Assembly (NCBI GenBank): GCA_046582655.1
Contig: JAYGDX010000259.1
Span: forward strand, 5,250-69,249
Reading direction: 5' to 3'
Length of the DNA stretch: 64,000 nt
Source of the DNA: Candidatus Poribacteria bacterium
Lineage (GTDB): Bacteria > Poribacteria > WGA-4E > UBA9662
Part shown: piece after piece, positions 20,199 to 64,000 of the stretch
Layout of the letters: each line of letters opens with the position of its first letter
How positions within the stretch are numbered: the first letter of the stretch is position 1
Notes under the pieces: generated by a model
The model's input: only the letters and a program-made list of their open reading frames with translations
Told to the model about the DNA's origin: nothing
Database searches by the model: none
Position numbers and translations under genes: made by a program

Positions 20199-20262
20199 CT
20201 GTAAGCAAGACCAACGGAGAAATGAGCTGGGAGTTACTCAACCGGATACCTCTCGGAGTGGT

Positions 20263-21327: not shown

Positions 21328-21699
21328 ATGCCTGTATCTAGCCAGAATCACGATGTTGGGCAAGTCGACGCGTTCGAATCAGGAAGACCCTACGTCGTTT
21401 GTGTGGCAGGCAGGGATGTGGTTCTCGTCCGGCGGGGAAATGAGTTCTTTGCGATTCGGGACGTGTGTCCCCACCACGGAGCGAAACTATCCGATGGCCT
21501 GTTGACAGGAGAAGTATCAGCTAGCCGGCCTGGCGAGCAACCCGAACTGCTGCGTAAGGATGAGTTCCTAGTGTGTCCCTGACATGGTTGGAAGATTGAT
21601 GTTCGTACGGGGTGTTCATCGCTAGAGCCGGATTGCATCAGGGTAAGACGGTATGGCGTTCACATCGAGGGGGGACGTGTTCTTGTGGCTCTCTCGTGA
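21328..21699 (+). pseudogene. Rieske [2Fe-2S] ferredoxin (NirD-like, about 123 aa) interrupted by an in-frame TGA at the conserved Trp of the CPWHGW box.
   Basis: ORF 21328..21582 contains Rieske box 1 (CPHHGAKLSDG) and ends ...LVCP-TGA (21580-21582). The same frame continues HGWKIDVRTG...YGVHIEGGRVLVALS to a TGA at 21697-21699. A single TGG to TGA change would account for this. Confidence 0.7.
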
Positions 21700-26164: not shown

Positions 26165-27061
26165 ATGGGATTAAGTCAAGAACAACTCCAACATTTTAAA
26201 GAAGAAGGTTTTTTACTAATTCGGGATGCTTTAGCCGATAGCGATCTGGATTCGGTCATTCGGGAGTACGAAGAACACATTGATCAACGGGCTAGAGAAT
26301 TGTTAGATCAAGGTAAACTTTCACGACTCTATAAAGATCAGTCCTTTGAACGTCGGCTTGTCTGCATTTGTCGGGAGAACAATGAGATCTATTCTGAACT
26401 TGATATTATGCACTTACGTGGTAAAGCTTCCTTTGATTTTCTGCGCAACAAAAATCTGATGAAAATCGTGACCTCTATCGTGGGTACAGAAATTACTTGT
26501 AGTCCGGTCCAGCATATCCGTGCCAAATTGCCGGTGGGCTTGACCCCAGAAGGGGCTGACGCCCATGTCGCTCCATGGCACCAAGATGCTGGGGTAACAT
26601 GGGAAGAAGCAGATCCCTACTTTATCCTGACGGTTTGGATTCCTCTGACCGAAGCAACCGAAAAAAACGGTTTTTTGCAAATTATTCCACGTGTCCATGG
26701 TATTGGGCTTTTGGCACATCACTCTAAAGCTGGGGTCGGAACTACCATTATTGATGAGGAAATACCACCACAGGCAATGTTGAATTTACCCATGCAAAAG
26801 GGAAGTGTTCTGCTAATACATAAGGAAACACCTCATCGGTCAACACCCAACCAATCTGATACTGTCCGTTGGAGTATGGATCTTCGGTATCAGAAGACTG
26901 GCACGCCAACCGGACGTCCCTTCCATCCGGATTTTGTCGTTTATAGCCAGTCCAATCCAGGTTCGGTACTGGACGATCACGAACAGTGGAGGAATATGTG
27001 GATTCAGGCACTTGAAAACAGTAGAGGCGTCCAAGCTCATCGTTGGTCACAAAAAAGTTAA
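26165..27061 (+). CDS. PhyH-family Fe(II)/2-oxoglutarate oxygenase, paralog 3.
   Basis: The N-terminus FKEEGFLLIRDAL, HxD (WHQDAGV) and a distal His (HKETPHRSTPN) are present in the 298-aa ORF. Confidence 0.85.
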   Translation: MGLSQEQLQHFKEEGFLLIRDALADSDLDSVIREYEEHIDQRARELLDQGKLSRLYKDQSFERRLVCICRENNEIYSELDIMHLRGKASFDFLRNKNLMKIVTSIVGTEITCSPVQHIRAKLPVGLTPEGADAHVAPWHQDAGVTWEEADPYFILTVWIPLTEATEKNGFLQIIPRVHGIGLLAHHSKAGVGTTIIDEEIPPQAMLNLPMQKGSVLLIHKETPHRSTPNQSDTVRWSMDLRYQKTGTPTGRPFHPDFVVYSQSNPGSVLDDHEQWRNMWIQALENSRGVQAHRWSQKS

Positions 27062-40440: not shown

Positions 40441-41841
40441 TTAATCGTCTTTGTTAATGCGGAGCCATGTCGGAATTTCGATGTCTGTGCCAACGTCGTT
40501 CGGCCTATTTTGGTTTGCTTGTTCGCCAGGTTGTCTGGCAGGTTCTTGGGTACGCATCATTTCCGGCAGATCGAGAGTTTCAGAAGCTGGTGCCGAAGCA
40601 AACTCTCTGTCATCATTGCTCTTTGGCTGATTAGCTTGATCTCTATCGAATGATCGGCGGTTGAACCTCGAATCCCTGCGAGAATTTGGTCTGGATCGGT
40701 GCGAATCACGCGAATCACGCGAATCACGCGAATCACGCGAATCACGGGAGGTATGGCGCGACCGATCTGAGAAACGGTTACTCTGACCAAAACGGCCTAA
40801 AAACTCACTTGAATCTCTAACATCCGCAGATGTATCTTGGTTGTATGAGCTGCCATGCTCAAAACCGGTAGCAATAACGGTGATATTGATTTCGTCATCG
40901 CTAAGGTTATCGTCATAAGTTAAGCCAAAAATGATGTTATCCGTGTCCGATTCTGCAGTAATAACGTCCATGGCATCGTTTAATTCTTGCATGGCCATAT
41001 GTGATGGTCCTGTCAGGTTAACTATAATGCCAGTTGCTCCAGAAATACTGCTTTCCTCAAGCAATGGAGAAGATATAGCATTTTGAGCCGCAACTTGAGC
41101 ACGGCTGTCACCAGCACCTCGGCCAATGCCCATCAACGCGCTTCCTGAATCTTCCATAACAGTTTGTACATCAGCAAAATCAAGGTTAATTTCACCCGGA
41201 ATAGTTATCAGGTCAGAAATGCTCTGCACAGCATTCAGTAATACCTCATCTACCATACTAAAGGCAGCACGCAAAGCGACATTCTGATCCACGTATTCAA
41301 TTAAACGCTCATTAGGAATGACAATTACGGAATCGGTGTTCTCGCGAATTTCCTCCAGTCCCTCTATCGAGTTATCGCCCCGGCGACGACCTTCAAAGTG
41401 GAATGGTCGGGTTACAACACCAATTGTTAATGCCCCAGCTTCTCTTGCAAGTCCTGCAATAATCGGAGCCGCACCGGTCCCTGTCCCACCTCCCATGCCG
41501 GCGGTCACAAAAACCATGTCTGCTCCTTCAACAATGGCCTTTAATTTGTCACGGTCTTCATCGGCAGCTACGCGGCCCTTCTCAGGATTTGCGCCCGCGC
41601 CTAATCCTTGTGTGGTCGTAGCACCAATCTGGACTCGCATAGCGTTATGGCAGGTTGTTAATGCTTGAAGATCGGTGTTCACTGCATAAAACCCCACTCC
41701 AGTCAGGTTGGCTTCAATCATGCGCTTAACCGCATTATTCCCACCACCACCAACACCAATTACCTTGATCCTCGCAGAACCGATTTGCTCATCTTGTTCC
41801 ATATCGAAGTCGATCATGCTTGCGTCTAATTTCGGGTCCAT
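40441..41841 (-). CDS. ftsZ: Cell division GTPase FtsZ.
   Basis: The tubulin signature GVGGGGNNAV and GGGTGTG are present, with a C-terminal linker and a conserved C-terminal peptide (DIEIPTWLR). The start is probably MDPKLD (41841) or MIDFDMEQ (41817). The linker carries an (SRD)5 repeat. Confidence 0.95.
   Translation of the reverse strand: MDPKLDASMIDFDMEQDEQIGSARIKVIGVGGGGNNAVKRMIEANLTGVGFYAVNTDLQALTTCHNAMRVQIGATTTQGLGAGANPEKGRVAADEDRDKLKAIVEGADMVFVTAGMGGGTGTGAAPIIAGLAREAGALTIGVVTRPFHFEGRRRGDNSIEGLEEIRENTDSVIVIPNERLIEYVDQNVALRAAFSMVDEVLLNAVQSISDLITIPGEINLDFADVQTVMEDSGSALMGIGRGAGDSRAQVAAQNAISSPLLEESSISGATGIIVNLTGPSHMAMQELNDAMDVITAESDTDNIIFGLTYDDNLSDDEINITVIATGFEHGSSYNQDTSADVRDSSEFLGRFGQSNRFSDRSRHTSRDSRDSRDSRDSRDSHRSRPNSRRDSRFNRRSFDRDQANQPKSNDDREFASAPASETLDLPEMMRTQEPARQPGEQANQNRPNDVGTDIEIPTWLRINKDD
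40701..40745. repeat. Perfect 9-bp tandem repeat, gcgaatcac x5, inside the ftsZ linker (encodes SRDSRDSRDSRDSRD).
   Basis: Read directly: gcgaatcacgcgaatcacgcgaatcacgcgaatcacgcgaatcac. It is in frame within ftsZ. Confidence 0.95.
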
Positions 41842-41986
41842 TGTATTTTGGTCACATCTGGTAACGCACGTAACCAAGCCTCCTATACCTTAATCGTCAA
41901 CTATCAAAAATTAAGTGAATTCTGTGATTATAAAACAGCAATATTAGTAAAGTCAACAGGTTTTTGAAATGAACTCAGTGGAAGAT

Positions 41987-43228
41987 TTAAAAGTAGTCAC
42001 TGAACCAGTTTTTCATCTGTGATAGAATTTGATTAAATCGATCTTCTCCCTTGATGAAAGATTTTCCATCTGCCACATGATGATTTTGTGATCCCAACAT
42101 TACCAGTCCAACGCCGGTAGCATAAACAGGACTGTTGACTTTATCGATTAATCCTTTTAATGGACGTGGATACCCTACCCTGACTGGACATGGAAACACT
42201 GGCTCTGCTAACTCAACCATACCATTTATTAGTGAAGTCCCTCCAGTCAGTACAAGACCTGCAGGGACTTCAACGCCACTTTTCTTTATCTCTTGGTGTA
42301 TTAGATTTAGTGTTTCTTCCATACGACATTGGACGATTTCAGCTAGGAATTCTCTTGGCACAAATTGCGGTCTATGGAGCCCACCAACTGTGGGTATTTG
42401 GATCGTCTCATTTGGATCAACCATATCTACCAAGGCACATCCTTTGAGGTGTTTGAGTTGAATAGCATCATCAGGCGTCATCTTTAACAACTGGGCAATA
42501 TCATGCGTTAGGTTATCACCACCTATTGATAGTACCTCGGTATGGCGTAACGAACCATCCTTATAAACTACAGTATCTGTTGTTCCTCCACCAATGTCAG
42601 CTAAAGCTACACCAATCAACTTTTCTTCTGCGTTCAAGACCGATTCTGCAGAAGCTATGGGCTCCAACACAACAGATTCAACCGCCATGCCCGCGTCATT
42701 CACGCATGTTGTAAGGTTCTTAACAGCACCAACTGCTCCAGTAATGATGTGTACGTAAGCTTCAAGACGAACGCCGGACATACCAATAGGATCTTTAATT
42801 CCATCCTGATTATCCACTTTAAAGCGTTGACGTAAGGACATAATCTCTTCTCTGTCAGCGGGAATAGCAACTGCTTTAGCTGCGTTAATTGCACGGTCAA
42901 TATCAGATTGCGTGATCTCATGTCCCTCACCTGAAACTGCAACAATTCCGTGTGATGTTTGTCCCATGATGTGACCACCAGCAATCCCAACGTGGGCGGA
43001 TCCGATTTGAACTCCAGACATTAACTCAGCGGCGGAAACTGCTTCGCGAATTGCTGCCGTCGTCAGTTCCATGTCAACCACGATACCACGTCGTAGCCCT
43101 CGAGAGGGAGCAGTACCGACACCGCGAATCTCAATCTTCTCAGGATCTCCTTGCCAAGTGTTTCCGATGATCACGGCAATTTTGCTTGTTCCAATATCTA
43201 GGCCAACAACAATATAATCAGTTGCCAT
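41987..43228 (-). CDS. ftsA: Cell division protein FtsA (actin-like ATPase).
   Basis: The 413-aa ORF starts MATDYIVVGLDIGTSKIAVIIG and contains DIGGGTTD, the actin-fold phosphate motifs. It lies between ftsQ and ftsZ. Confidence 0.95.
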   Translation of the reverse strand: MATDYIVVGLDIGTSKIAVIIGNTWQGDPEKIEIRGVGTAPSRGLRRGIVVDMELTTAAIREAVSAAELMSGVQIGSAHVGIAGGHIMGQTSHGIVAVSGEGHEITQSDIDRAINAAKAVAIPADREEIMSLRQRFKVDNQDGIKDPIGMSGVRLEAYVHIITGAVGAVKNLTTCVNDAGMAVESVVLEPIASAESVLNAEEKLIGVALADIGGGTTDTVVYKDGSLRHTEVLSIGGDNLTHDIAQLLKMTPDDAIQLKHLKGCALVDMVDPNETIQIPTVGGLHRPQFVPREFLAEIVQCRMEETLNLIHQEIKKSGVEVPAGLVLTGGTSLINGMVELAEPVFPCPVRVGYPRPLKGLIDKVNSPVYATGVGLVMLGSQNHHVADGKSFIKGEDRFNQILSQMKNWFSDYF

Positions 43229-44054
43229 CTTGCTTCTTCTCCATTAAGTACACAGCATCTTCAAATCTAAAATCTAAATACACTCCCATCCGCTTTTTAG
43301 CTTGCTTTGCTTGTTTTAGATGTTGGAAAAACAGTTTAAGTCGGTTAACACCAATCACAAGCTGATCCGAAGATAATAGAATCAAGGGCATATTTCTCAG
43401 CCGAACGCGAATTCGATCCGTTTCACTTGCATCAATAGAATCCAGTTCGGAAAAGATTTCTTCTGCTCTTTTCTGGATTAGGTCTAAAACTTTTAAGCCA
43501 GTTTGAACCTGCTCGGACACTAATTGACTACCCAATTCAGCACTCTTACCGATAATTTTTACCAGTGAACTGTGCGAAAGATCGGGCAAATTTAGGTATT
43601 CTAGCACATAACCAGACCGGTCGACAATCATAAAAAGCGGTTTTTTTTCAATTATACATGGGATTTTGGCAGTTTTTTTCCGTTCTGTAATGTTTATTGA
43701 TACAGTTTTCAAGAGATAATGTTTTGAAACAACTGCTTCCTTGATATAATTTAGTTTCTCAATACGTGCTGCAATCTCTTCCTCTGAAACCTGATGAATG
43801 AGGTCACGATTTATTTGTAACCCTGAAGAATTAACAATTTTATCTTGCGTATAAAGTTCGTTTCCCTGAACAGAGATTTCCTCTAGCTGCAAAATGCTGC
43901 TGTTTAGGATTATGCTGTTTACATGTGAAAAAGCAATAATAATTACCAATGCTAGCCAAATAAGCTGACTGATGTTAGTTTTTTCATAAGTTCGTGTGTC
44001 TAAGGACTCGGTAGCCAGCGGTGGAACATATAGTTGTGGAGCATAGATTCTCAT
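43218..44054 (-). CDS. ftsQ: Cell division protein FtsQ (POTRA-domain protein).
   Basis: 278-aa ORF with a single N-terminal transmembrane helix (LIWLALVIIIAF) and a periplasmic POTRA-like region. It sits in the canonical murC-ftsQ-ftsA order, and its ATG overlaps the murC stop (ATGA). Confidence 0.8.
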   Translation of the reverse strand: MRIYAPQLYVPPLATESLDTRTYEKTNISQLIWLALVIIIAFSHVNSIILNSSILQLEEISVQGNELYTQDKIVNSSGLQINRDLIHQVSEEEIAARIEKLNYIKEAVVSKHYLLKTVSINITERKKTAKIPCIIEKKPLFMIVDRSGYVLEYLNLPDLSHSSLVKIIGKSAELGSQLVSEQVQTGLKVLDLIQKRAEEIFSELDSIDASETDRIRVRLRNMPLILLSSDQLVIGVNRLKLFFQHLKQAKQAKKRMGVYLDFRFEDAVYLMEKKQDGN

Positions 44055-45415
44055 TTTTTTAACTGATCCAATAGCTTGTAACCAACTCGCCAGATATCGC
44101 CAGCACCCATAGTGATGACGATGTCATTGGGCTGGACAATATCAATTAAATGATTAACAATCTGATCTTTCGATGGCATGTACGTTACGTTTTTGTGTCC
44201 GTTGGCTTCAATTGCTATAGCCAGTTTCTCCCCAGTCACACCCTCAATCGGTGCTTCATCTGCAGCGTAAATCGGTGCAACAATGAGAACATCACTCTGA
44301 CTAAATGACTTTGAAATCTCATCAGTGAGACGACTGACCCGACCGTATCTATGTGGTTGGAAGATAGCAATTATGCGTCGATCGTAACTGTCGCGTATAC
44401 CATTTAAAGCAGCTTTTAGCTTGGTTGGATTGTGGGCATAATCATCAACAATGATAATATCTTGAACTTCCCCTAAAATTTCGAAACGCCGATGCACTCC
44501 ACGAAACTCTTCAAGTGCATCTGTAACTTGGCTGAATGGTAAGTCCATCTGGAGCCCAGCCGCAATTGCAGCTAATGCATTGGATACATTGTGTTTTCCT
44601 GGCATCTTCAAATGAATTTGGCCAAGTAGATCCCCATACGCTAAAACAGAAAAATGTGACGCTGGTCCATCATGTTTGATGTCTGTTGCCATGACATCAG
44701 CCTTTGTCTCGATGCCATAAGTACAGTAACGTCTTTCAATCTGCGGTATTATCTGGCGGATATTTACTTGATCTAAACAGACGATCGCCGAACCATAAAA
44801 TGGAACTTTGTTGATAAAGTTCAGAAACGCCTGGCCTATTTCCTCAACATTGTTGTAGTAATCCAAATGGTCCGCGTCAATAGATGTGACAACAGCGATA
44901 GTCGGGAAGAATTCCTTAATTGACCCATATGCTTCATCTGCTTCAACTACCATCAGCTCACTATTTCCAATGCGTGCATGACTTCCCAAACTTACCAGTT
45001 TCCCTCCCACAACTACGGTTGGATCTAATTCTTCCAAAACGGCGGCCGTCATAGCAGTTGTTGTCGTCTTTCCATGAGTGCCACTAATAGCAATACTAAA
45101 TTTCATCCGCATAATTTCCGCTAGCATCTCTGCTCCACGAATGATGGGGGTTTTTTGCTCATGTGCGGCAACAATCTCTGGATTCTCTGGCGGAATAGCG
45201 GGAGAGACAACCACAACATCTGCGTTTTGTATCTGTTTGGCAGAATGCTTCTCATAAATATCCGCTCCAATTTTCATCAAATGGTCTGTTACTTCTGTTG
45301 AACGCAGGTCAGATCCAGAGACTTTGAATTCAAGGTTCACTAGTATTTCAGCAATACCGCTTAAACCTGCGCCACCAATTCCAACTATATGGATGTGTCT
45401 TGTTTTTCCAAACAT
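44051..45415 (-). CDS. murC: UDP-N-acetylmuramate--L-alanine ligase.
   Basis: The start is taken at MFGKTRHIHIVGIGGAGLSGIAE, the MurC N-terminal signature. The Mur-ligase P-loop GTHGKTTTT is present. Confidence 0.95.
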   Translation of the reverse strand: MFGKTRHIHIVGIGGAGLSGIAEILVNLEFKVSGSDLRSTEVTDHLMKIGADIYEKHSAKQIQNADVVVVSPAIPPENPEIVAAHEQKTPIIRGAEMLAEIMRMKFSIAISGTHGKTTTTAMTAAVLEELDPTVVVGGKLVSLGSHARIGNSELMVVEADEAYGSIKEFFPTIAVVTSIDADHLDYYNNVEEIGQAFLNFINKVPFYGSAIVCLDQVNIRQIIPQIERRYCTYGIETKADVMATDIKHDGPASHFSVLAYGDLLGQIHLKMPGKHNVSNALAAIAAGLQMDLPFSQVTDALEEFRGVHRRFEILGEVQDIIIVDDYAHNPTKLKAALNGIRDSYDRRIIAIFQPHRYGRVSRLTDEISKSFSQSDVLIVAPIYAADEAPIEGVTGEKLAIAIEANGHKNVTYMPSKDQIVNHLIDIVQPNDIVITMGAGDIWRVGYKLLDQLKK

Positions 45416-45428
45416 AATAATATTACAC

Positions 45429-46526
45429 TTACATAAAATTATAAATTGACTCAGCAATAATTCGCCCTGCGTCAGAATTACCAAGTTTATGGCTTGCTTG
45501 GGACATGCTATCCAGCCTTGCCGAATCAGTAATAATATTGATTATACAGTCTGCTAGTATCTTACCATCTATTTTAAATTGATCTAAAACAATTCCTGCA
45601 CCTTTATTAGCTATTGTTTTAGCATTAGCTAGTTGATCATTTCCCGCGGCATAGGGAAGTGGAATAAATATAGCAGGAATTCCACAAGCGGTAATCTCCG
45701 AGACTGTCATCCCCCCAGCACGACATACCATTAGATCTACGATGCTATAAATTTCTTCTATTCGATCAAAGTAGGATTGTACCACGCTCTTTACCGATGA
45801 CTTATCGTATTTACCGACGACAATCTGCAGATCTTGTCTCCCAGTTTGATGTATCAACTGAAAATGTTGGTTGTGACATTCAAGATATTTCAGTGCCTCG
45901 ATTATCAGTGAGTTAATTGCCTTAGCACCTTGACTGCCACCCATAACAAAAATTGTTTTGAGGCTGGAATCAAGCCCCAACTTCTCGTAAGTATTCAGAC
46001 TGCGTTTAACAGCTGAGATCGATCGACGTATTGGGTTTCCAGTTAACATGACAACATTAGAAGGAAAATACGATGCAGCTGCTTCCAGCGCTAAGTAAGC
46101 CATACGAGCCCAGGTTCCCGCTATTCGATTCGTGAGTCCAGGTGAAGCGTTTTGTTCTTGTAGAAAAGTGGGGATTCGATGGATCCAAGCAGCTAAGAGT
46201 ACTGGCCCAGAGACATATCCTCCTGTTCCAACAACAGCATCCGGTTGAAGCTTAGCCAGAAGTTGGAAGGATTTTATAATTCCCAACAACAACTTTGTAA
46301 TTACTGGGAACCATTTCAATGTCAGCTTTCGTGGAAAACCCGCAATTGAAATTGGTAGAAATTGGAACCCATTTTGCGGTACCACTTTCGATTCAAGTTG
46401 AGTTGCTCCGCCGATAAAAATAATGTCGATATTTGAATCGATTAGCTGCAATTCTTTTGCGATACCTATTGCGGGGTAAACATGTCCACCTGTTCCACCA
46501 CCAGCAATAACAATTCTTGGGTTCAT
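45429..46526 (-). CDS. murG: UDP-N-acetylglucosamine--N-acetylmuramyl-(pentapeptide) pyrophosphoryl-undecaprenol N-acetylglucosamine transferase.
   Basis: The 365-aa ORF starts MNPRIVIAGGGTGGHVYPA (G-loop), and the C-terminal GT28 domain is present. Confidence 0.95.
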   Translation of the reverse strand: MNPRIVIAGGGTGGHVYPAIGIAKELQLIDSNIDIIFIGGATQLESKVVPQNGFQFLPISIAGFPRKLTLKWFPVITKLLLGIIKSFQLLAKLQPDAVVGTGGYVSGPVLLAAWIHRIPTFLQEQNASPGLTNRIAGTWARMAYLALEAAASYFPSNVVMLTGNPIRRSISAVKRSLNTYEKLGLDSSLKTIFVMGGSQGAKAINSLIIEALKYLECHNQHFQLIHQTGRQDLQIVVGKYDKSSVKSVVQSYFDRIEEIYSIVDLMVCRAGGMTVSEITACGIPAIFIPLPYAAGNDQLANAKTIANKGAGIVLDQFKIDGKILADCIINIITDSARLDSMSQASHKLGNSDAGRIIAESIYNFM

Positions 46527-46534
46527 CAGTTCGT

Positions 46535-47716
46535 TCAGACATCTTCATGCAGATGTCGTGATATGTTCAGTAAGATTCCAACGGAAATTAGGGTCATTAC
46601 CAAAGAACTACCTCCATAACTGATAAAAGGTAAGTTGATTCCTTTAGTTGGTAAAAGCCCCGTAGTAACTCCAATGTTTATTACCGATTGGAGGCCAATC
46701 TGAGTGATTATACCAAGCGAAATTAAACTTGCAAATTGATCCGTTGCATAGGTTGCGATGTAGATACCACGCCATACGAACAGCATAAAGAGCAAAATAA
46801 GGGTTATTGTTCCTAGAAGACCAAGTTCCTCTCCCACGATGGCAAAAATAAAGTCATTATGTGGATGCGGTAGGAACATCAGTTTATAAATACTATTCCC
46901 TATACCAGCACCGGTTATACTACCAACGGCTAATGCGTTTAGAGACTGTGTCACCTGATAGTTTGTATCATAAGGATTGGAAAACGCACGTACATAGTCT
47001 TGTATTCGCTGCATTTTGTAATTATCACCCTGCATCCATATAAAAACAAAGAACCCTGCAATCACGCCAACCAGAAAAATTTGTGATATTCGCGCTCCAC
47101 CAGTTATCAAAAGTAGTATTATAACCAAGCTTAATAGTACGGCAGATCCAAAATCAGGCTGAACATATAGAAGAAAAAAGACCAAAGCGAGGATAATTAG
47201 ATTAGGCAGTATTCCCTGCGTAAAGCTTTTAATCCGTTCATGTTTGCTAATGAGGAAATTTGAAGTGTAAATAATCATCCCTAACTTTACTAATTCAACT
47301 GGTTGAAAACCGAAACCTCCCAGTCGAATCCACCGATGAAACTTCATCCCCGACCTCGACTGAACATAATAGCCCAACGGTGTAAAAACCAGTAGCAAAA
47401 TAAGGATGGAAAGTCCAAGTATCCCCTTTGCGTGTTTAGCGTAAAATTGGTAGGGTATCAATGACACAGCCATCATCAGACCTAAACCGCTAACGACTGC
47501 AACCAGTTGGACTTTGAAATAACGGAGACCATTACCATTATAAGTTTGATCTATGAAAGCATTTCCGGTACTGTAAACCATTACAAGCCCAAAACTGACA
47601 AGACACAAAATTAAAAACAGAAACAGTTGATCGATCTGCTTTACAAAGCCAAAAGATGGATTAACCGGTAAAGGGGGATTATAAGATTGGTTGTTTACTG
47701 TGGACCTTAGATTCAA
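46535..47716 (-). CDS. ftsW: SEDS-family peptidoglycan glycosyltransferase FtsW.
   Basis: 393-aa polytopic ORF with FtsW/RodA motifs (e.g. GIGNS) and the conserved C-terminal loop. It lies between murD and murG. The start is TTG, so the coordinate is approximate. Confidence 0.9.
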   Translation of the reverse strand: MNLRSTVNNQSYNPPLPVNPSFGFVKQIDQLFLFLILCLVSFGLVMVYSTGNAFIDQTYNGNGLRYFKVQLVAVVSGLGLMMAVSLIPYQFYAKHAKGILGLSILILLLVFTPLGYYVQSRSGMKFHRWIRLGGFGFQPVELVKLGMIIYTSNFLISKHERIKSFTQGILPNLIILALVFFLLYVQPDFGSAVLLSLVIILLLITGGARISQIFLVGVIAGFFVFIWMQGDNYKMQRIQDYVRAFSNPYDTNYQVTQSLNALAVGSITGAGIGNSIYKLMFLPHPHNDFIFAIVGEELGLLGTITLILLFMLFVWRGIYIATYATDQFASLISLGIITQIGLQSVINIGVTTGLLPTKGINLPFISYGGSSLVMTLISVGILLNISRHLHEDV

Positions 47717-49076
47717 GTTGGGTTACTACTTTCCGAAAAGTCTGCCCACGTTCTTGGTAATCTTCAAACATGTCAAAACTGGCGTTGGCTGGTGAGAGGA
47801 GAACTACGTCTCCAAGTTCTGAATGTTCATAGGCAAGGTGAACAGCAGCGCTCATATCTGTAGTGTTTAAAGTAACGATATCTTCTGAAAGCGCGTTTCG
47901 GATTATTTGGGTGCGTCCACCCAGCAGAATAACTTTCTTGACTTTAGATTGAATCAGTCCGATAAGTGGCTCATAATTATTACCTTTATCGTAGCCTCCC
48001 ATAATCAATATAATTGGAGCCTCAATTGATTCAAGCGCAGCACGAACGGCGATGACATTGGTTGCCTTCGAATCATTAATAAATCGAATGCCGTTCACTT
48101 CTCCCACGAATTCAAACGCATGTGCCAGAACAGGATAATTTTGGGGCACGAAATTAATCACTGTTGATCTAATATCGCTAGGCGAGATTTCAAAGATTTG
48201 GGCAACTGCAATCGCGGCCAACATGTTTCGGATGTTGTGTCTTCCTTTCAGACGGATTTCGCTGATGTGACACACGCGAGTCAATTGGTCTTGCCAGTTT
48301 ATCCAGATTTCATCGTTTCGCAAAAAGGAGCCTATCTTAGGCTCAGTGGAATCAGAAAAGTAGACTGGCTTTGCCCTAGTGTTATTGGCAAAACTTAGCA
48401 CTTTCGAATCTCCAGCATTTAAGATGATCCAATGATCGTCTGTTTGGTTTTGACAGATATTTTGCTTTATCTCCTGATAGCTCTGCATTGTTTGATGACG
48501 ATCTAAGTGGTCACGGGCTATATTCAGTACCACACTAACTAATGGACAGAAATTAATTGTTGTCTCTAACTGAAAACTACTTACTTCTGCAACTACGATA
48601 TCATTTGTCACTAAACGTTGCACATCATTTGAAAGGGGATTACCAATATTACCAGCCACGCAAACTGTTCCGAAGGCTCCCCTCTTAAGTAATTCTCCTG
48701 TAAGTATGGTAGTCGTTGATTTTCCTTTGGTTCCGGTAATAGCAACGATTGGTGTGCGACATACGCTAGCAGCTACCTCCAATTCTCCTCGGATAGGTAT
48801 TCCTTCATGTTTAGCTTGAACCAGAATCGGAATGTCTAGCGGCACACCAGGTGATACAACGAGCATATCTTTGTTCTTTATGCATTGTGGCTTGTGTCCA
48901 CCCAGCAGAAAATCGATATCTAAGTCACTGAGGGCATCAATTTCGGTCTTAAGTTGATCGGCAGATTTTGGATCAGTAACGCACAGGTTAGCACCCAGAT
49001 CATGTAGTAGTCTGCTTACAGCAATACCACTCCGACTCAACCCAAAAACTGTAATTTGCTTACCTTCGAATTTCAT
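47679..49076 (-). CDS. murD: UDP-N-acetylmuramoylalanine--D-glutamate ligase.
   Basis: The start is taken at the ATG MKFEGKQITVFGLSRSGIAV, the MurD N-terminal signature. The Mur-ligase P-loop GTKGKSTTT is present. Confidence 0.9.
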   Translation of the reverse strand: MKFEGKQITVFGLSRSGIAVSRLLHDLGANLCVTDPKSADQLKTEIDALSDLDIDFLLGGHKPQCIKNKDMLVVSPGVPLDIPILVQAKHEGIPIRGELEVAASVCRTPIVAITGTKGKSTTTILTGELLKRGAFGTVCVAGNIGNPLSNDVQRLVTNDIVVAEVSSFQLETTINFCPLVSVVLNIARDHLDRHQTMQSYQEIKQNICQNQTDDHWIILNAGDSKVLSFANNTRAKPVYFSDSTEPKIGSFLRNDEIWINWQDQLTRVCHISEIRLKGRHNIRNMLAAIAVAQIFEISPSDIRSTVINFVPQNYPVLAHAFEFVGEVNGIRFINDSKATNVIAVRAALESIEAPIILIMGGYDKGNNYEPLIGLIQSKVKKVILLGGRTQIIRNALSEDIVTLNTTDMSAAVHLAYEHSELGDVVLLSPANASFDMFEDYQERGQTFRKVVTQLESKVHSKQPIL

Positions 49077-49119
49077 CAGCAACCTACTTTACTGGTAGTT
49101 CACAGTATTCAGAATGGAT

Positions 49120-52100
49120 TCACTTCTTAATAACTATTTTTTGCCTGTCTGTATGGATTCCATTAACTCGCAGCATGACAAAATACATGCCGCTAGCAAC
49201 GATATCACCATTCAGGTTTCGGCCGCTCCAGTAAGCAGCTCGATCTCTCGTACGATAACTGCCAGCAGATTTGGATCCAAGTTCAATTTGACGCACAATC
49301 TGACCGTCCAATGAATAGATCAAAATGGAGATATCTGCCAATATAGCGACGTCAAATGGAATCCAAGTATCAGGATTAAAAGGATTGGGGTAGTTTGGCA
49401 ACAATCTAGATTTGGCTGGATGGAATTCTTCCACTTGTGCTAGGACCTGATCGATTAGTTTCGAGGCTAGTGCTACGGCGTTTGGATTACTGAATTTTGA
49501 GGCGACTAGAATGAGGTCAAATAGGTCCACAATCCCGTCGGTATTTACGTCAGATTTCCCGTTGAATCCCTGATTGATTCTGTTTCCGAAATCCTTGGCA
49601 ACAAGCACGAGATCAGTAATGTCCACAACACCATCATGATTTATATCCCATTTTAAAAAAACAGGTAGCTGAATTGCTGGGGTTATCCGACTCCAACTCC
49701 GGCTCTCAAGTTGCGCGTTATTAATTGCTTTTATTCTTCCGTAGTAATTACGTTCATGCTTCCCAACGAAGCTATAATTTGTTTTGCTACCATCTATTTG
49801 TTCATCAACAATCAAGTCTAAGAATATGCGCGTGTCAGTATCAATCTGAACATGATAAAGTGCAATTCCACTCAAATCTTTAACTGGTTTCCATTTTAGC
49901 GTAATTTGATTATTTGATGTTTCCCAACTGATGTTCGACACCATTTTTGGAGGAGAACTATCGATTCTAAATTCAAAGTGACTGGTCTCAGTCCAATATC
50001 CAAGCTGATCCTTGGCTCGAACGTGAACCCACCAAATCCCATCGTTGAGTCCAGAAAACTTTAACTTATTGTTTTTTACCATTAAATCCGGAAAATTGTC
50101 AGGGATGTTTTTGGGGCGATGATCAAGTACAAAACTATACTTCCGGCCATTTTGGTTTTCTGGGATGGTAACTAGGTCCATCTTGGGAGAATCGCTGCTA
50201 TACCATCTATCTGATTTTGGGTGCGTCGTCGACGATATTTGTGGTGGTTGCAATGGTGTGTGATCAACTATAACGTATTTTGCGCTGTTAACTGTGCTCA
50301 CCCCTCCATGTGAGTCCGTTGTGACTGAACGTAAGTGATATTTTCCGTCCTTAATAAAGATGGTTTGCCATGTATATGATTTTGTGTCGCTGGTGATGTT
50401 CTTTGTAATTAATTTGGCAAATTGATCATTGAGAGAGTCATTGTAATAATAAAGATCGATGGTAAAATCGTCCCCTTCTGGATCCTGTGCTTGCCAATCC
50501 ACTTTGAAGGATTTGTCAGAAATCGCATTGTCGGTTGGTATAACGAACTTAAATTCTGGACTTGTGTTTGGCCGTGGCGGGGTATGGTGAACCTTATAAA
50601 TCTCCTTTAAATTTAATATTTCAGGAAATTCAAGTTCCTGCCAGGCCACTGCAATGCCAATAATGTTCTTCGGTCTTCGCTCAACTAAAATTCGCCAAAC
50701 TAAGTCAAATTTATCATCAATATTATCATCATCAATACCAAGGGTCATATCTATGGAATCCGAAGTGTCAAACACATCCCAAAGAATACTGGCTATAGTC
50801 CCTTCAACAACTGATCCATCTTTGTTTTGGCCTTTTCCGTTGTTACTGCCTGTCCACCAATTGTTTGCTTCAATGTTAGGGGTTGCCTCCCCCCATCTTC
50901 CGGTTACGTTTAGAGCACGGTCATCGACTGCGGCCTCGCAGAATTCAGCCCATCCTTCGCTAAAAGCAAATTCGAGGTCCGATACAGTTTCGAGTCGGTG
51001 TGGCATTTGATGATTTCCGCGCGGTACCTGTTCATATTGATAGTCATAAGCTGCCATCATAACGGAATGACCATATTCATGGTACATCGTGACATTACGC
51101 CATTGATCAACCCCAGCAGCAATTCTGATTTCTTCCCCAGTAATTTTACCTCCAAATTGATTGGCATAGTAATATGAAAAACGTCCTGAATCCGGCCAAA
51201 CGACTCGGATGTGATCCCGACTCCAACCTAGCCGGTTTAGGAAAAAATTATGCGCTCTCTGGATGGCATCATAGATATTTCCGAGCGCGCGATTCGGATT
51301 CCGATCATCCAGTACCACATCAATAACAACCTCCCCTTCTTCCACGTTTTGAATTATCTCCGACCTGATTTCGTAGATCTTCTTCCGGCGATCGCTTATG
51401 GATAACAAGTCATTACTGAATCGAACCCCAACGACCAAGTTGGGAATCTGATCCTTATCAAGTCCTGGAAGATCATTAAAAAAGTATGAACCTTGATCAT
51501 CAGCGTACGTTTCCGCCACGATAATTTGGTTATTATATAGTATAACTTTCGAGTTTTGGATTGGTTTCTCGATTTTTTCATTGTCATTGAAATAACTAAC
51601 TTTTCCGTGAACGTTAACTTGACCAATTTGCTCAGCCCAATGCCGTTGTTTGACACGTGACTGTAAGATATCGCCTCCAGAAAATCGATCTGGAGGGTAG
51701 GTCAGGACTTCTGCAGATGCTGTAGATGAACGCAGATAAAGATAGAAATGCTCAGCAACTGGCCTGTTGTATAAGTCAGTAAAGTAGATAGATGCTTGTA
51801 ACGGGTATTGACCTGGTTTATCGACCAAAAAACTTACACGAAATTCCGTATCTGATCGAGTGGGCAAGTAAACATAGTCAAAGGCATCTGGTGATTGAGG
51901 GGTGATTCCACGAGGCAGTCTGAACAGGACTTGACAGACGATATTCTTATTGAGATTTGAATCAATTGATAAAATCAGCGTAGTGTTTTCACCAACCCTC
52001 GGTGCATAAGCAAGTTCTAGATGACCGTTAACACTAGGGGAATAATGCCTGTATGCAGATATATTCGTGGGGCCCAAAGCTAACAGGAATAGGACTATTA

Positions 52101-52125
52101 GAGAAAAAAAACGCACTTGAGTCAA
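49120..52125 (-). CDS. T9SS-secreted multidomain protein: signal peptide, putative zinc-metalloprotease domain (HEYGH), Ig/FN3-like repeats, two dockerin type-I repeats, and a C-terminal T9SS sorting domain.
   Basis: The 1001-aa ORF has MYHEYGHSVMM...EGWAEFCE (an HExxH motif plus a downstream Glu). Dockerin repeats DINHDGVVDITDLVLVAKDFG and DVNTDGIVDLFDLILVASKF are present. The C-terminus NYPNPFNPDTWIPFDVA...ISILIYSLDGQIVRQIELG...GMYFVMLRVNG...KIVIKK is the Por_Secre_tail pattern. Confidence 0.8.
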   Translation of the reverse strand: MTQVRFFSLIVLFLLALGPTNISAYRHYSPSVNGHLELAYAPRVGENTTLILSIDSNLNKNIVCQVLFRLPRGITPQSPDAFDYVYLPTRSDTEFRVSFLVDKPGQYPLQASIYFTDLYNRPVAEHFYLYLRSSTASAEVLTYPPDRFSGGDILQSRVKQRHWAEQIGQVNVHGKVSYFNDNEKIEKPIQNSKVILYNNQIIVAETYADDQGSYFFNDLPGLDKDQIPNLVVGVRFSNDLLSISDRRKKIYEIRSEIIQNVEEGEVVIDVVLDDRNPNRALGNIYDAIQRAHNFFLNRLGWSRDHIRVVWPDSGRFSYYYANQFGGKITGEEIRIAAGVDQWRNVTMYHEYGHSVMMAAYDYQYEQVPRGNHQMPHRLETVSDLEFAFSEGWAEFCEAAVDDRALNVTGRWGEATPNIEANNWWTGSNNGKGQNKDGSVVEGTIASILWDVFDTSDSIDMTLGIDDDNIDDKFDLVWRILVERRPKNIIGIAVAWQELEFPEILNLKEIYKVHHTPPRPNTSPEFKFVIPTDNAISDKSFKVDWQAQDPEGDDFTIDLYYYNDSLNDQFAKLITKNITSDTKSYTWQTIFIKDGKYHLRSVTTDSHGGVSTVNSAKYVIVDHTPLQPPQISSTTHPKSDRWYSSDSPKMDLVTIPENQNGRKYSFVLDHRPKNIPDNFPDLMVKNNKLKFSGLNDGIWWVHVRAKDQLGYWTETSHFEFRIDSSPPKMVSNISWETSNNQITLKWKPVKDLSGIALYHVQIDTDTRIFLDLIVDEQIDGSKTNYSFVGKHERNYYGRIKAINNAQLESRSWSRITPAIQLPVFLKWDINHDGVVDITDLVLVAKDFGNRINQGFNGKSDVNTDGIVDLFDLILVASKFSNPNAVALASKLIDQVLAQVEEFHPAKSRLLPNYPNPFNPDTWIPFDVAILADISILIYSLDGQIVRQIELGSKSAGSYRTRDRAAYWSGRNLNGDIVASGMYFVMLRVNGIHTDRQKIVIKK

Positions 52126-52262
52126 TTCAATCTGAATTTAAGTATCACTCGAAACCTATATAGTTGGGAGAAGTACTTGCTTTACTAAACTTAATGTTAT
52201 CAAGTATACTTCACGTGTCAGAACGATTTCAATCTACATACCAAATAGACAAAGTTGAACCT

Positions 52263-53333
52263 ATGAACCACATTGATAAAATTGGCTTGATAGGTGTTGC
52301 TCACCCGCATTCTATCGCTCACCTGAAGACTCTTCGTTGGATAGATCAAATTGTGGATATACCAATCTACGATCCCGACGAATCTGCGATTCGCAATGCC
52401 AAAGAGGAAATTGGCGACAAAATCGGAGAAATATATACCGATCTCGACAGCTTACTTAACCGAACAGACGTGCCAATTATGTTCGTATGTCTGCGAAATG
52501 ATCAAACTCCAGACGTCTTAATCAAATGTGCCGATGCAGCAAAGCATATCATTGTAGAAAAACCGGTTGCAACGTCGGCTGAAGCATTCAAACCGGCACT
52601 TGATACAATTGAGAAAGCTGGTCTTAAAATGACGGTTTGTTTTCAGAACCGTTACCATCCGATGGTACAAGAGATCTTTAATTTAATCGGCGAAGGAATT
52701 TTGGGCACACCGATGTCAATTGAGATGCGGATGATTACATCCCAGGTTAGATTTCGCGATCCTGATCACTGGTTATTCCAGAAGGAACTTTCCGGTGGTG
52801 GCATTTTATCATGGTTAGGATGCCATTATCTAGACATGGCGTGTTACTTTATGCGAGACCGTGTCAGCGAAGTAAGTGCAATTGTGGCAACAAACAGTGG
52901 AGAGTCAATCGATGTCGAAGATACTGCCTCGCTCTCTTTTCGATTTAGTAGTGGCTCAGTTGGCAGTCTGCACGTAGGTTATATGTTACCATTCAGTGGG
53001 TCGGGTTATATGGGGCCTAGCTACGACACGTACATTGCAATTCGTGGGACAAAAGGCAACATTGTATGGAATCCGTTTGAAATGGAAAAGCCACTTACAG
53101 CTGAGAGTACGATAGTGGCATGGGAAACGTCACCGCATCGCGTTTTTCATCATCAGCTACCAGCATGTGATGCCTACGGTGGAATACACGGCGTAAAATT
53201 CGTGACTGATTTTTTAGACACAATTGCTTCTGAAAAGCAGCCAGCAGTGAGTGGTAACGATATGATGCACGTTTTGGAAATTCTAGATGCCGCTTACGAA
53301 TCAGACGCAACCGGCAGAAGAATTAATATTTAG
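52263..53333 (+). CDS. Gfo/Idh/MocA family NAD(P)-dependent oxidoreductase.
   Basis: The start is taken at MNHIDKIGLIGVAHPHSIAHL (Rossmann G-x-x-G-like), and a C-terminal dimerisation/catalytic domain follows. The upstream TTG in the ORF track is less likely. Confidence 0.85.
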   Translation: MNHIDKIGLIGVAHPHSIAHLKTLRWIDQIVDIPIYDPDESAIRNAKEEIGDKIGEIYTDLDSLLNRTDVPIMFVCLRNDQTPDVLIKCADAAKHIIVEKPVATSAEAFKPALDTIEKAGLKMTVCFQNRYHPMVQEIFNLIGEGILGTPMSIEMRMITSQVRFRDPDHWLFQKELSGGGILSWLGCHYLDMACYFMRDRVSEVSAIVATNSGESIDVEDTASLSFRFSSGSVGSLHVGYMLPFSGSGYMGPSYDTYIAIRGTKGNIVWNPFEMEKPLTAESTIVAWETSPHRVFHHQLPACDAYGGIHGVKFVTDFLDTIASEKQPAVSGNDMMHVLEILDAAYESDATGRRINI

Positions 53334-54376
53334 TTACTGTCAGCTAATTCAAATGATTCTAGTTCAAATTCAATTTCGACGGTTATTTCTCCACGTGTTT
53401 GCATTTGCGTAAACTTGACGAGACCCACGTCAGGTGCCAGCCATTTCTGTACAACCGTCTGGTCAAGGTCCTGATTGAACAATTTCCATGAGAAGGATTC
53501 TTGCACCTGAAAAACGCTATTGAAAGTTCCTGCAGGAACGGTTAAATTCTCCTCAGAAATGACCTCGAACTCATCTGAACCACCACCTATTGGGAAAAGC
53601 TCAGGTGTTAGTTTCGCTTGGAAGCTTTGTTGCCATTGGTTGCCGGGAATCAGTGGGAAACGATAAAGTGACAAAAAAGGTACAAACATGATAGTATCTT
53701 CTGTGCCAGAAGTAACATTTTGTGCGTACTGAAGTATCTCAATAGGTTTGTTGTTTTTGTCAACATTTCGACCTAGATAGGAAAAATTATAAATCCGCCA
53801 TTCCTGATCCTGGTTGGCAGGGTCAGCTAAATTTGGGTCATATTCTGGTAAATTTGGGTCGTATTTACTCAGCACGTAACTCGGAACAGTCCGGTTTTTT
53901 TCTAACTGAATTTGGATTTTATCAATAATCTCGAATACAATTTTGTTTTTCTTATTATGAACGTTGCTATAAGTCCATACATTGCCTACAGAAAGTGGGT
54001 AGTAATCACCAAGACGTGTTTTCCAGACCTGAATAATGAGTAATCCATTCGTTGATTTGCTTCCATCGCTGACGTTCACATTAATCTGAAAACGTCTTTC
54101 TTCTTTTGGTGCAATCCAAGTAGCACCATTACCATCGCCCTGAATGGAGCCTCCTGTTGATGACCATCGGAAGAACATCGGGTCATCTTCGATATCATAT
54201 GCTTCTAGGCGAATTGTGAGTTTTGATCCCGGTTCAACGATGTTTGATTCCGACTTAAGTAATTTAATCTTTGGGGCATAATTCTTATGTCGATCTGAGA
54301 TTTCATCGCTACAACTGGTTATAATAACTAGCCAGATCGTTAACAAAAGAAATATATACTGCTTAACAGCAAGCAT
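53330..54376 (-). CDS. Hypothetical lipoprotein with an Ig-like N-terminal domain.
   Basis: 348-aa ORF with a signal peptide and lipobox (VIITSC) and a GAGGAG RBS. The beta-rich body has no assignable catalytic motifs. Confidence 0.7.
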   Translation of the reverse strand: MLAVKQYIFLLLTIWLVIITSCSDEISDRHKNYAPKIKLLKSESNIVEPGSKLTIRLEAYDIEDDPMFFRWSSTGGSIQGDGNGATWIAPKEERRFQINVNVSDGSKSTNGLLIIQVWKTRLGDYYPLSVGNVWTYSNVHNKKNKIVFEIIDKIQIQLEKNRTVPSYVLSKYDPNLPEYDPNLADPANQDQEWRIYNFSYLGRNVDKNNKPIEILQYAQNVTSGTEDTIMFVPFLSLYRFPLIPGNQWQQSFQAKLTPELFPIGGGSDEFEVISEENLTVPAGTFNSVFQVQESFSWKLFNQDLDQTVVQKWLAPDVGLVKFTQMQTRGEITVEIEFELESFELADSN

Positions 54377-62071: not shown

Positions 62072-64000
62072 TCAAAGCATGCTAATTGGGTCAATGTCCA
62101 CAATTAGCTCGATACTCGTTGGTGCCAAATTAGTCCGTGTTGATTGATTCATAGCTTGGATTGTCTCTCGAAGATCATCAGAACTTTCACACCTTAGTAA
62201 CAGGTGCCAGCGGTGCTTAGCCTTAATCTTGGCTAATGGCGCGGCAACTGGTCCTCGGATCTCAACATTAGGAAAACGATCTGTCCGGATTGAATCCAGA
62301 ACACTTCGCAGATCATTGGCAGTGCTAATGACCTCTTCTTCTATAGTTCCCCGCACCAGAATTGTTGCTGCATGACTTAGAGGTGGGTAGTTTAATTCCT
62401 TCCGAAACACAATTTCCTGGTTATAAAAACCAGCATAATCATGGTTCTTAGCGGCTTGGATGCCGTAGTGATCTGGCATATAGGTTTGGACAATAACTTT
62501 CCCTCCCAATTTACTCCTGCCAGATCGACCTGCAACTTGTGTGAGCAAATTAAATGAACGCTCACTGGCACGGAAATCAGGTAAATTCAGGGCAGTATCT
62601 GCAATGATAACACCAACCAGCGTAACGTTTGGAAAATCCAGTCCTTTCGCTATCATCTGAGTACCAACAAGTATATCAATTTCTTGATTGTTAAATTGAT
62701 CTAATATTGTCTGATGCGCATTTTTCCGTGATGTAGAATCGGTATCCATTCGTTGAGCTTTTGCCTGAGGGAACGCTCTCAATACTTCTTGTTCAACCCG
62801 TTCAGTTCCCAACCCAAAATAGCGAATGTTTTCACTTGTGCAATCAGGACAACTTCGGGGGGGGGGGCTCTCCGCACCGCAGTGGTGACAAACTATCTGT
62901 TGCTTACTAAAATGGTAGGTCATTGACACTGAACAGACATCACACTTTTCAACATGACCACAATTTCGGCAGAACACATAACTTGAATAACCGCGTCGAT
63001 TCAGAAACAGAATAGTTTGTTCATTTCGCATTAATCGATCTGTAATTGCTGTCCGCAGAGATCTCGAGAATATAGAGTGATTCTTGGATTTCAATTCCTC
63101 ACGCATATCGATAATTTCTACCTTTGGCATCTCAATACCACCGATACGTGACGGCATCGAGATTAAATGGAACTTTTCTTTCTCAGCATGGTAGAAACTT
63201 TCGAGCGACGGCGTCGCCGTTCCTAAGACAACAGTACAATTTTCTAATTTCGATCTTTGAATCGCCACATCACGCGCATGATAACGCGGTGACGAATCCT
63301 GCTTGTAGGATGTTTCATGTTCTTCATCTATCACAATCAGTCCGAGATTGGGAACTGGTGCAAAAATCGCTGATCTGGCTCCAATGACAATCGATGCCTT
63401 ACCTGAACGGACACGCAGCCATTGATCATATCGCTCACCATCAGAGAGACGACTATGTAAAACGGCAACATCTACTCCAAAACGACCAACAAAACGAGAG
63501 ACAGTCTGTGGTGTCAATGATATCTCAGGAATCAGAATAATCGCTCCTTTCTTCTTACTTAGGACTCTCGCAATAACTTGTAGATAGACCTCTGTTTTGC
63601 CACTACTTGTCACCCCATGTAACAGAAACGTTTTAGGTAGGCTGGTTTCAATCGAATGATGAATCTTTGCTACTGCATTGATCTGATCGGAGTTAAGAGT
63701 GAGCGGCTCCGTATTTTCGATTGGCTTGGAATCCCACGGATTTCTGGTAATTTCAATCGACTGCAATTCGACCAGATTCTTTTTTTCTAAGGCTTGAAGC
63801 GTTGTCAAACTGGTGTTAGCGGTTTTCAATAGTTCTGCACTGGAAATTGGTAACCTGTTATAAACAGATATCAGGGTACGAAGTATCTCAGCCTGCTTAG
63901 GCGCACGCTGAAGAGTTGATGTTATTTCTTGGTTGATTTCAGCAATTGGTTTAGCCAGAGCAACGAAAGTAGCATATTGCTTTTGAGAAGTAGGCCGAAA
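62072..64000 (-). CDS. priA: Primosomal protein N' (replication-restart helicase PriA), N-terminus beyond the right window edge.
   Basis: The DEAD/H helicase core has Walker A (GVTSSGKTEVYL) and DEEH, plus the PriA-specific Cys-rich zinc-binding insertion (CRNCGHVEKCDVC...CHHCGAESPPPRSCPDC). The reading frame stays open upstream of the first listed codon (a TTG) to position 64000. Confidence 0.9.
   Translation of the reverse strand, partial: FRPTSQKQYATFVALAKPIAEINQEITSTLQRAPKQAEILRTLISVYNRLPISSAELLKTANTSLTTLQALEKKNLVELQSIEITRNPWDSKPIENTEPLTLNSDQINAVAKIHHSIETSLPKTFLLHGVTSSGKTEVYLQVIARVLSKKKGAIILIPEISLTPQTVSRFVGRFGVDVAVLHSRLSDGERYDQWLRVRSGKASIVIGARSAIFAPVPNLGLIVIDEEHETSYKQDSSPRYHARDVAIQRSKLENCTVVLGTATPSLESFYHAEKEKFHLISMPSRIGGIEMPKVEIIDMREELKSKNHSIFSRSLRTAITDRLMRNEQTILFLNRRGYSSYVFCRNCGHVEKCDVCSVSMTYHFSKQQIVCHHCGAESPPPRSCPDCTSENIRYFGLGTERVEQEVLRAFPQAKAQRMDTDSTSRKNAHQTILDQFNNQEIDILVGTQMIAKGLDFPNVTLVGVIIADTALNLPDFRASERSFNLLTQVAGRSGRSKLGGKVIVQTYMPDHYGIQAAKNHDYAGFYNQEIVFRKELNYPPLSHAATILVRGTIEEEVISTANDLRSVLDSIRTDRFPNVEIRGPVAAPLAKIKAKHRWHLLLRCESSDDLRETIQAMNQSTRTNLAPTSIELIVDIDPISML

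Follow-up and report, generated by a model that had tools for sequence, protein, structure and literature searches.

A probable secreted zinc peptidase with a dockerin and a sorting-type tail, encoded beside murD in Candidatus Poribacteria

Secreted zinc peptidases that end in a type A sorting domain of a type IX secretion system (T9SS) are described from Bacteroidota, where they are represented by the NCBIfam models NF038113 (T9SSA_dep_M36) and NF052323 (T9SSA_dep_M6i). In the Cloacimonadota, Candidatus Stygibacter encodes dockerin-bearing hydrolases, peptidases among them, together with a cohesin protein that has a T9SS-type C-terminal domain, a set that its authors read as a cellulosome-like surface complex with a tail-anchored scaffoldin (PMC8542988). 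The Poribacteria, which have been divided into sponge-associated and free-living members (PMC8546597), were reported to carry TIGR04183 tails on eukaryote-like repeat proteins, among them those with WD40 and leucine-rich repeats (LRR) (Kamke et al. 2014, PMC3909097). Here we describe a gene for a predicted metallopeptidase, hereafter the protease, that lies directly upstream of murD in a 64,000-nucleotide stretch of the Candidatus Poribacteria contig JAYGDX010000259.1; we refer to this whole stretch as the window.

We conclude that the protease is probably a secreted surface or extracellular zinc endopeptidase of a pelagic Poribacterium, and that it came to stand beside murD through a lineage-specific rearrangement. 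Nearly all protease homologues come from Candidatus Poribacteria, in which the family is conserved across many assemblies, and the closest genome matches to MurD are the Candidatus Poribacteria metagenome-assembled genomes (MAGs) NP41 (86%) and SP142 (79%). The guanine-plus-cytosine (GC) content, about 0.40-0.43, and the origin of the sequences in marine metagenomes fit a free-living pelagic lineage of this phylum.

The protease and its catalytic domain

The protease gene and the segments of its product are as follows.

49120-52125, minus strand: protease open reading frame (ORF) of 1001 codons, encoding a secreted multidomain metallopeptidase; longest ORF, with a TTG start at 52125
52054-52125, minus strand: Sec-type signal peptide (residues 1-24, ending LALGPTNISA before YRH), read from the sequence and appearing in the model as an N-terminal helix of low predicted local distance difference test score (pLDDT)
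51310-52035, minus strand: two N-terminal beta-sandwich domains (residues 31-141 and 155-272), from the model and paralogue comparisons
50590-51288, minus strand: thermolysin-fold catalytic domain (clan MA, gluzincin; residues 280-512)
49720-50556, minus strand: three immunoglobulin (Ig)-like/fibronectin type III (Fn3) spacers (residues 524-620, 629-721 and 733-802), from weak Pfam matches, model strands and Foldseek
49486-49653, minus strand: type I dockerin with two calcium-binding repeats, DINHDGVVDITD and DVNTDGIVDLFD, from Pfam and sequence reading
49123-49410, minus strand: sorting domain at the C-terminus, a beta-sandwich of T9SS type A or FlgD-Ig type (NYPNPFNPxTWIP...)

Translation probably begins three codons after the TTG at 52125, as judged from database homologues of 998 residues. 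Reading of the signal peptide found no lipobox Cys. The pair of N-terminal beta-sandwich domains co-occurs with the catalytic domain in paralogue architectures when these are compared residue by residue, and the spacers are supported by weak Kre9_KNH, Big_13 and fn3 matches and by Foldseek matches to Ig/Fn3 arrays. An AlphaFold model of the whole protein reached a pLDDT of 80.5. Public records already contain near-identical proteins, under the names "hypothetical protein", "dockerin type I domain-containing protein" or "T9SS type A sorting domain-containing protein". The domain calls of an earlier note on this DNA, which had listed an HExxH peptidase, a dockerin and a Por-type C-terminal domain, were upheld by profile searches.

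The HEYGH motif occupies residues 349-353 (nucleotides 51067-51081), and the third ligand, Glu390, stands within SEGWAEF (nucleotides 50941-50961), a segment whose family form is (N/S)EGWAEF. In ORF numbering, one residue above that of our 26-homologue alignment, H349, E350, H353 and E390 were invariant across all 26 homologues (36-84% identity), and about 60 further positions of the 249-residue catalytic domain were invariant in 14 to 26 homologues. Even a distant homologue of 26% identity retained HEFGH...TEGWAEF. The two elements that mark a gluzincin, an HExxH motif and a downstream Glu, are conserved family-wide.

A fold search with the model of the whole protein was dominated by Ig/Fn3 arrays and gave no information on the catalytic domain; the catalytic region (residues 272-520) was modelled separately, with a pLDDT of 81.3 and a predicted template modelling score (pTM) of 0.85. 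This model has the thermolysin-like two-lobed fold, with structural comparison scores of 14.3 against thermolysin (195 residues, 3.0 Å), 13.5 against pseudolysin (LasB), 13.1 against an M36 fungalysin and 10-12 against M1 aminopeptidases. Foldseek with the catalytic domain returned no significant match, its weak top matches being ACE and ACE2, both of them gluzincins.

At the level of sequence, residues 1-520 matched no Pfam or NCBIfam family, and the whole protease matched no peptidase family of either collection at E 0.01. Scanning 14 catalytic domains at E values up to 10 gave noise only, and sequence and profile searches of the PDB with the catalytic region gave nothing, or a chance match to TIM18 only. 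We rejected membership in M4, M36 and M1 and placed the domain in the clan MA gluzincin fold outside these families because their sequence profiles fail; the kinship is one of clan-level fold only. Compared with the thermolysin-like gluzincins of MEROPS clan MA(E) (M4 thermolysin and pseudolysin, M36 fungalysin, M1), the protease has an identity of only 8-14%, and its second His and its Glu are 36 residues apart, a longer spacer than the 19 residues of thermolysin.

A profile was then run against 1.84 billion representative proteins; 1,221 clusters matched with E <= 1e-3, and 374 clusters matched with E <= 1e-10. The catalytic family occurs in many architectures, and some of its members come from archaeal MAGs. 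With about 1,200 representative clusters, this is a sizeable family of gluzincin sequences for which neither Pfam nor NCBIfam has a model.

Dockerin, C-terminal tail and route of export

The dockerin of the protease passed the Pfam Dockerin_1 profile (PF00404): it scored 28.2 bits (residues 827-876), and the gathering score is 22.9. It contains two canonical DxNxDGxVDxxD repeats of about 22 residues, at residues 827 and 859 (DINHDGVVDITDLVLVAKDFGN and DVNTDGIVDLFDLILVASKFSN), and the model places helices of moderate pLDDT at about 835-843, 867-875 and 880-890, such that each of the two tandem calcium-binding loop segments is followed by a helix. Pairwise comparisons identified paralogues of about 720 residues, with the catalytic module, one Ig domain and a dockerin end, and of about 570 residues, with the catalytic module and a dockerin end; both kinds are without the tail. 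One distant relative of 1028 residues has neither dockerin nor tail. The cassette of dockerin, linker and tail also terminates an unrelated passenger, an M23 peptidase with YWTD repeats (P0065), as well as large LRR proteins that carry a cohesin in related genomes (P0066 and P0067). From these architectures the dockerin appears to be a constant companion of the catalytic module and the cassette appears to behave as a portable surface-display module, which makes a cohesin-dockerin interaction plausible for the protease.

The tail (residues 906-1001) forms an extreme C-terminal beta-sandwich by its model strands, in a protein that begins with a Sec signal by sequence reading. With TIGR04183, whose cut-off is 23, the whole protease scored 24.5 bits and its tail alone 30.4 bits. 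The tails of the protease family also cross-match the NF038113 and NF052323 models. By the homology of its tail, then, the protease would be a T9SS cargo; by organism, this is unproven.

A single gene in the window resembles a component associated with this route:

879-1502, minus strand: truncated PorV/PorQ-family-like gene, 207 residues (NF033709, 47.8 bits against a cut-off of 90)

Its counterparts in two sister lineages (L036 and L037) encode 693-697 residues, including an extra C-terminal half with a GDCDD motif, and score 80.3 bits, again under the cut-off. Downstream of them come an ORF of 290 residues, a CHASE2 histidine kinase gene and the gene of a sigma-54 response regulator. Relative to L036, the window has a 5.7-kb deletion that takes most of the PorV-like gene and all three of these downstream genes, with a junction at about 885-895 and about 10 nucleotides of microhomology. 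The deletion is real and strain-level, because its junction recurs in L035 and L038, two independent contigs from JGI with 97% identity. A PorV-like barrel is thus present in the group and dispensable in a strain with an intact protease gene, and it neither establishes nor excludes a T9SS.

Several of these observations weigh against a protease displayed by a T9SS and held by a cohesin. The tail scored 25.3 bits with Pfam PF18962, just under its cut-off of 27. A profile of the tail found FlgD Ig domains as its best PDB matches (E 2.7e-7), ahead of PorU (6za2, E 0.019) and PorZ (5m11, E 0.2). Por structural genes were not found in poribacterial single-cell genomes (PMC3909097), the only relevant paper that we found in the literature on Poribacteria together with dockerin, cohesin or T9SS. 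The sole PorV/PorQ-like gene that we found is sub-threshold and, in the protease's own strain, truncated by a deletion. Finally, neither the window nor the examined loci of the pelagic lineage, in 0.7 Mb searched with a narrow profile, yielded a cohesin. The earlier note had treated the host as a T9SS organism; the host belongs to the Poribacteria, for which TIGR04183 tails were reported without the Por structural genes, and that label is not established.

These points leave room for a different account of the tail, namely that it is an Ig-like module of FlgD type with a surface-binding or structural role, that export follows a type II or other route, and that the dockerin is the anchor. The order of the PDB matches and the lack of Por structural genes would fit such an account, as would the paralogues of about 570 and 720 residues, which keep the dockerin without the tail, and the strain that lost the PorV-like gene and kept the protease. 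We nevertheless regard it as a possible but less probable explanation, as all 17 of 17 tails of the protease family and its cassette relatives matched TIGR04183 (best E 1.4e-10), and the tail occupies the extreme C-terminus and is the best-conserved region of the protease (61% mean column identity versus 54% overall). One cassette ends many unrelated passengers, as a sorting signal would, and the sister lineages have a PorV/PorQ-like barrel.

The search for cohesins also bears on another statement of the earlier note, that a dockerin on such a cargo implies cohesin-bearing partners. This goes further than the loci allow: besides the protease, we found no gene with a tail, dockerin or cohesin in the 64-kb window. 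Related genomes do have a protein family in which cohesin, dockerin and tail occur together. The cohesin proteins that we saw carry a single cohesin, and none is from the pelagic lineage. Starting a search from the P0066 cohesin gave nothing but frameshift fragments of this LRR-cohesin-dockerin-tail family and was uninformative on the pelagic lineage. As a separate observation, many database "cohesin" proteins of 100-230 residues (as in L032) are frameshift fragments of this one family, from low-coverage (about 4x) long-read assemblies, and are not small adaptor proteins.

A more elaborate possibility is a surface cohesin-dockerin network anchored by T9SS-type tails through a divergent or non-T9SS export route, with the protease as one conserved component and, in the pelagic lineage, as the first gene of the murD-ftsZ transcription unit, which would tie surface proteolysis to growth. 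We consider this unlikely. Under our preferred account, that of a secreted zinc endopeptidase, the protein would be exported by Sec, and its C-terminal domain would either direct it across the outer membrane or anchor it there. The dockerin may bind a cohesin-bearing surface protein, such as a member of the LRR-cohesin-dockerin-tail family of related genomes, and the protease would then degrade extracellular protein at the cell surface.

The murD junction, the split cluster and the rest of the window

Downstream of the protease lies part of the division and cell wall (dcw) cluster. The features of this region are listed below.

40441-49082, minus strand: 3' half of the dcw cluster, murD-ftsW-murG-murC-ftsQ-ftsA-ftsZ, by family profiles
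47679-49082, minus strand: murD, with a probable ATG at 49076 (TIGR01087, 399.8 bits)
40441-41877, minus strand: ftsZ, by a curated equivalog
49077-49119, minus strand: spacer of 43 nucleotides between the protease stop and the murD ATG, with a TAGGT motif and free of terminator-like hairpins
52203-52232, minus strand: best sigma-70-like promoter match, TTGAAA-18-TATACT, 10 of 12 positions, a consensus match only
53330-54376, minus strand: DUF3108-like lipoprotein gene, whose linkage to the protease gene is seen in two marine lineages

Six of the genes (murD, ftsW, murG, murC, ftsA and ftsZ) scored far above curated equivalog cut-offs and stand in canonical order; ftsQ passed only its two Pfam domain models. 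From the canonical contiguous cluster (mraZ-rsmH-ftsL-ftsI-murE-murF-mraY-murD-ftsW-murG-murC-ftsQ-ftsA-ftsZ), only the part from murD to ftsZ is present. Using tblastn with queries from a more distant Poribacterium (L007), we found no ftsI, murE, murF, ddl or mraY in the 64 kb, the MurE and MurF queries matching only the paralogues MurC and MurD. Family scans of most ORFs of at least 120 residues revealed no 5' dcw gene, small ORFs of mraZ or ftsL size not being exhaustively covered. The absence of the mraZ-to-mraY half from this locus, which the earlier note had proposed, is thereby borne out. The gap between protease and murD measures 37 nucleotides to the TTG that had been taken as the murD start and 43 to the likelier ATG at 49076. 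A GFO/IDH/MocA oxidoreductase gene lies upstream of the protease and runs on the opposite strand.

We found the same protease-murD junction in ERZ27286455, ERZ838136, NP41 (PBXZ01000090) and SP142 (PAQF01000013), which come from different samples and assemblers. The shared order runs priA, GH123, GT4, sigma-54 activator, NYN, DUF3108-like, GFO, protease, murD to ftsZ, DJ-1, hexapeptide transferase and BatD; it is present in ERZ27286455, NP41 and SP142, and ERZ838136 agrees up to its contig end. This block of 23 kb occurs in L002, L004 and L005, with NYN not detected in L005. Protein identities along the shared order were 78-97%, with 78-84% for the protease and a similar 79-86% for murD.

More distant relatives suggest how the adjacency arose. 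The dcw cluster is intact in L007, L008 and L009, and L007 (MurD 51%) reads ftsI-murE-(hydrolase)-murF-ddl-mraY-murD; because it keeps the cluster intact, the split is derived. The break between mraY and murD is found in the lineage of the window and in L006 (MurD 62%), where a creatininase gene rather than the protease lies upstream. Distant protease orthologues (43-46% identity) stand downstream of priA and ahead of a divergent DegP-like gene in L001 and L033, and between a DUF3108-like gene and a GFO gene in L034; in none of these three contexts does the orthologue adjoin murD or any dcw gene. In the window, too, the protease is flanked by priA, the DUF3108-like gene and the GFO gene; it therefore appears to have kept its neighbourhood, and the murD-ftsZ block to have joined it. 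The simplest reading is that an old, lineage-specific rearrangement, which would have split the dcw cluster between mraY and murD, joined two blocks, and that nothing dropped into an intact cluster. The protease is thus better described as rearranged next to murD than as inserted upstream of it, as the earlier note had it.

The comparisons are evidence for fixation of the split in the pelagic lineage. On marine contigs with a GC content of 0.40, mraY stands alone between hslVU and maf, which fits this account and suggests further fragmentation of the dcw cluster; the tie of these contigs to the lineage is by GC and level of divergence only.

In L034, the DUF3108-like gene (4043-4783) lies directly upstream of the protease orthologue on the same strand and overlaps its start by 25 nucleotides. 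Together with its linkage in the window, this hints that the DUF3108-like lipoprotein may be a functional partner of the protease.

We next considered transcription across the spacer. No terminator-like hairpin was found in the 43 nucleotides, and folding of the surrounding 121 nucleotides was no better than that of shuffled sequence (z = 0.02). Four lineages share a short spacer in which a ribosome-binding-like TAGGT precedes the start codon. Because the gap is free of terminators and the layout recurs in this way, read-through and co-transcription from the protease into murD are plausible, and some read-through is likely; murD may also have an internal promoter. The sigma-70-like site lies about 80 nucleotides upstream of the protease start, and such matches were no commoner than in shuffled sequence.

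One could go further and read the adjacency as functional, the protease being co-expressed with murD-ftsZ and working on the envelope as the cell grows or divides, for instance through the processing of a surface layer or of a protein associated with the cell wall. The two genes share a strand and a terminator-free spacer, their junction is kept in four lineages down to 78% identity, and the canonical dcw promoter region on the mraZ side is absent from the locus. Even so, we find this quite improbable: the orthologue is unlinked to dcw genes in the three more distant contexts, and L006 shows the same break without the protease. The dockerin, sorting tail and Ig spacers form the architecture of an extracellular enzyme, and no similarity to known cell-wall hydrolases was found. 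That the protease-murD adjacency is itself incidental is most likely.

Two weaker readings concern the enzyme and the assembly. The HExxH domain might be a catalytically dead binding module in an adhesin, a role that the many Ig/Fn3 domains and the dockerin would suit and for which NCBIfam offers a precedent in a T9SS-dependent inactivated M6-like family; given the invariance of the four active-site residues and of the roughly 60 positions around them, and the motifs kept at 26% identity, we think this very improbable. Misassembly at 49.1 kb, the outcome that the earlier note said would overturn its claim, or a recent strain-specific insertion there, can be set aside almost entirely because the junction was reproduced in four independent assemblies at 78-84% protein identity, and GC is flat across it (about 0.41-0.42).

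Elsewhere in the window, a GC-rich stretch at 16000-21500 (0.50-0.56, versus about 0.41 around it) may be horizontally acquired; it includes two ORFs without a family match, at 15893-18115 (740 residues) and 18434-19399 (321 residues), and an Amidohydro_2 gene at 20263-21327. A ribosomal RNA operon as the cause of the GC peak at 16-22 kb was rejected, as Rfam gave nothing at gathering thresholds and ARAGORN no transfer RNA. On the minus strand at 28262-30741, a TonB-dependent receptor appears to be split into three consecutive ORFs, a plug (30358-30741), a middle part of 522 residues without a match and a C-terminal barrel fragment (28262-28735), with frameshifts or a pseudogene as possible causes. 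The priA ORF at 62072-63829 (minus strand, 585 residues) aligns only to the C-terminal part of the 823-827-residue PriA of relatives; the N-terminal part would run toward or beyond the window end, and there is an in-frame stop before the listed start. Genes of the PhyH (phytanoyl-CoA dioxygenase) family occur at 7943-9561 and 26165-27061 and also in the poribacterial loci L031, L001 and L033. Finally, a DUF6785/DUF6784 membrane protein is encoded at 13141-15117, and its counterpart adjoins the solitary mraY in L027-L030.

Comparison with known systems

Neither the conserved secreted gluzincin nor the dcw rearrangement is a new kind of system, and overall the locus is ordinary. The analysis offers a functional reading for a protein family that is poorly named in public records, as a thermolysin-fold zinc peptidase displayed outside the cell. 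What it adds is modest: a family for which Pfam and NCBIfam have no model is assigned at the level of its fold, a dockerin-tail cassette recurs in a phylum without a reported T9SS, and there is evidence for fixation of the dcw split in the pelagic lineage. It also sharpens the point made in 2014, that Poribacteria have many Por-type tails, by finding such tails fused to dockerins where no Por machinery has been reported.

The protease resembles the T9SS-dependent metallopeptidases of Bacteroidota in being a secreted zinc peptidase with a type A sorting end. It differs from them in its catalytic family, in the dockerin just before the tail and in its host, a Poribacterium, in whose phylum the machinery was not found (PMC3909097). 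With Candidatus Stygibacter it shares the setting of a Gram-negative candidate phylum that pairs peptidase dockerins with T9SS-type tails; in the poribacterial case, dockerin and tail share one polypeptide, and the sole type of cohesin protein in related genomes has a single cohesin without tandem repeats and was not seen in the pelagic lineage. The repeat proteins of Kamke et al. (PMC3909097) are from the same phylum, have the same C-terminal domain and raise the same question of secretion route; that paper mentions no peptidase passenger, and searching its text for "dockerin" and "cohesin" gave 0 matches.

As for the dcw cluster, the split is a tidy marker of the pelagic Poribacteria rather than surprising biology. 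Fragmentation of this cluster is common outside rod-shaped model organisms, and in the split clusters of other bacteria, as here, the 3' block stays in canonical order with the 5' genes elsewhere; what sets this case apart from them is that both the intact and the broken states are found within one phylum, the Poribacteria.

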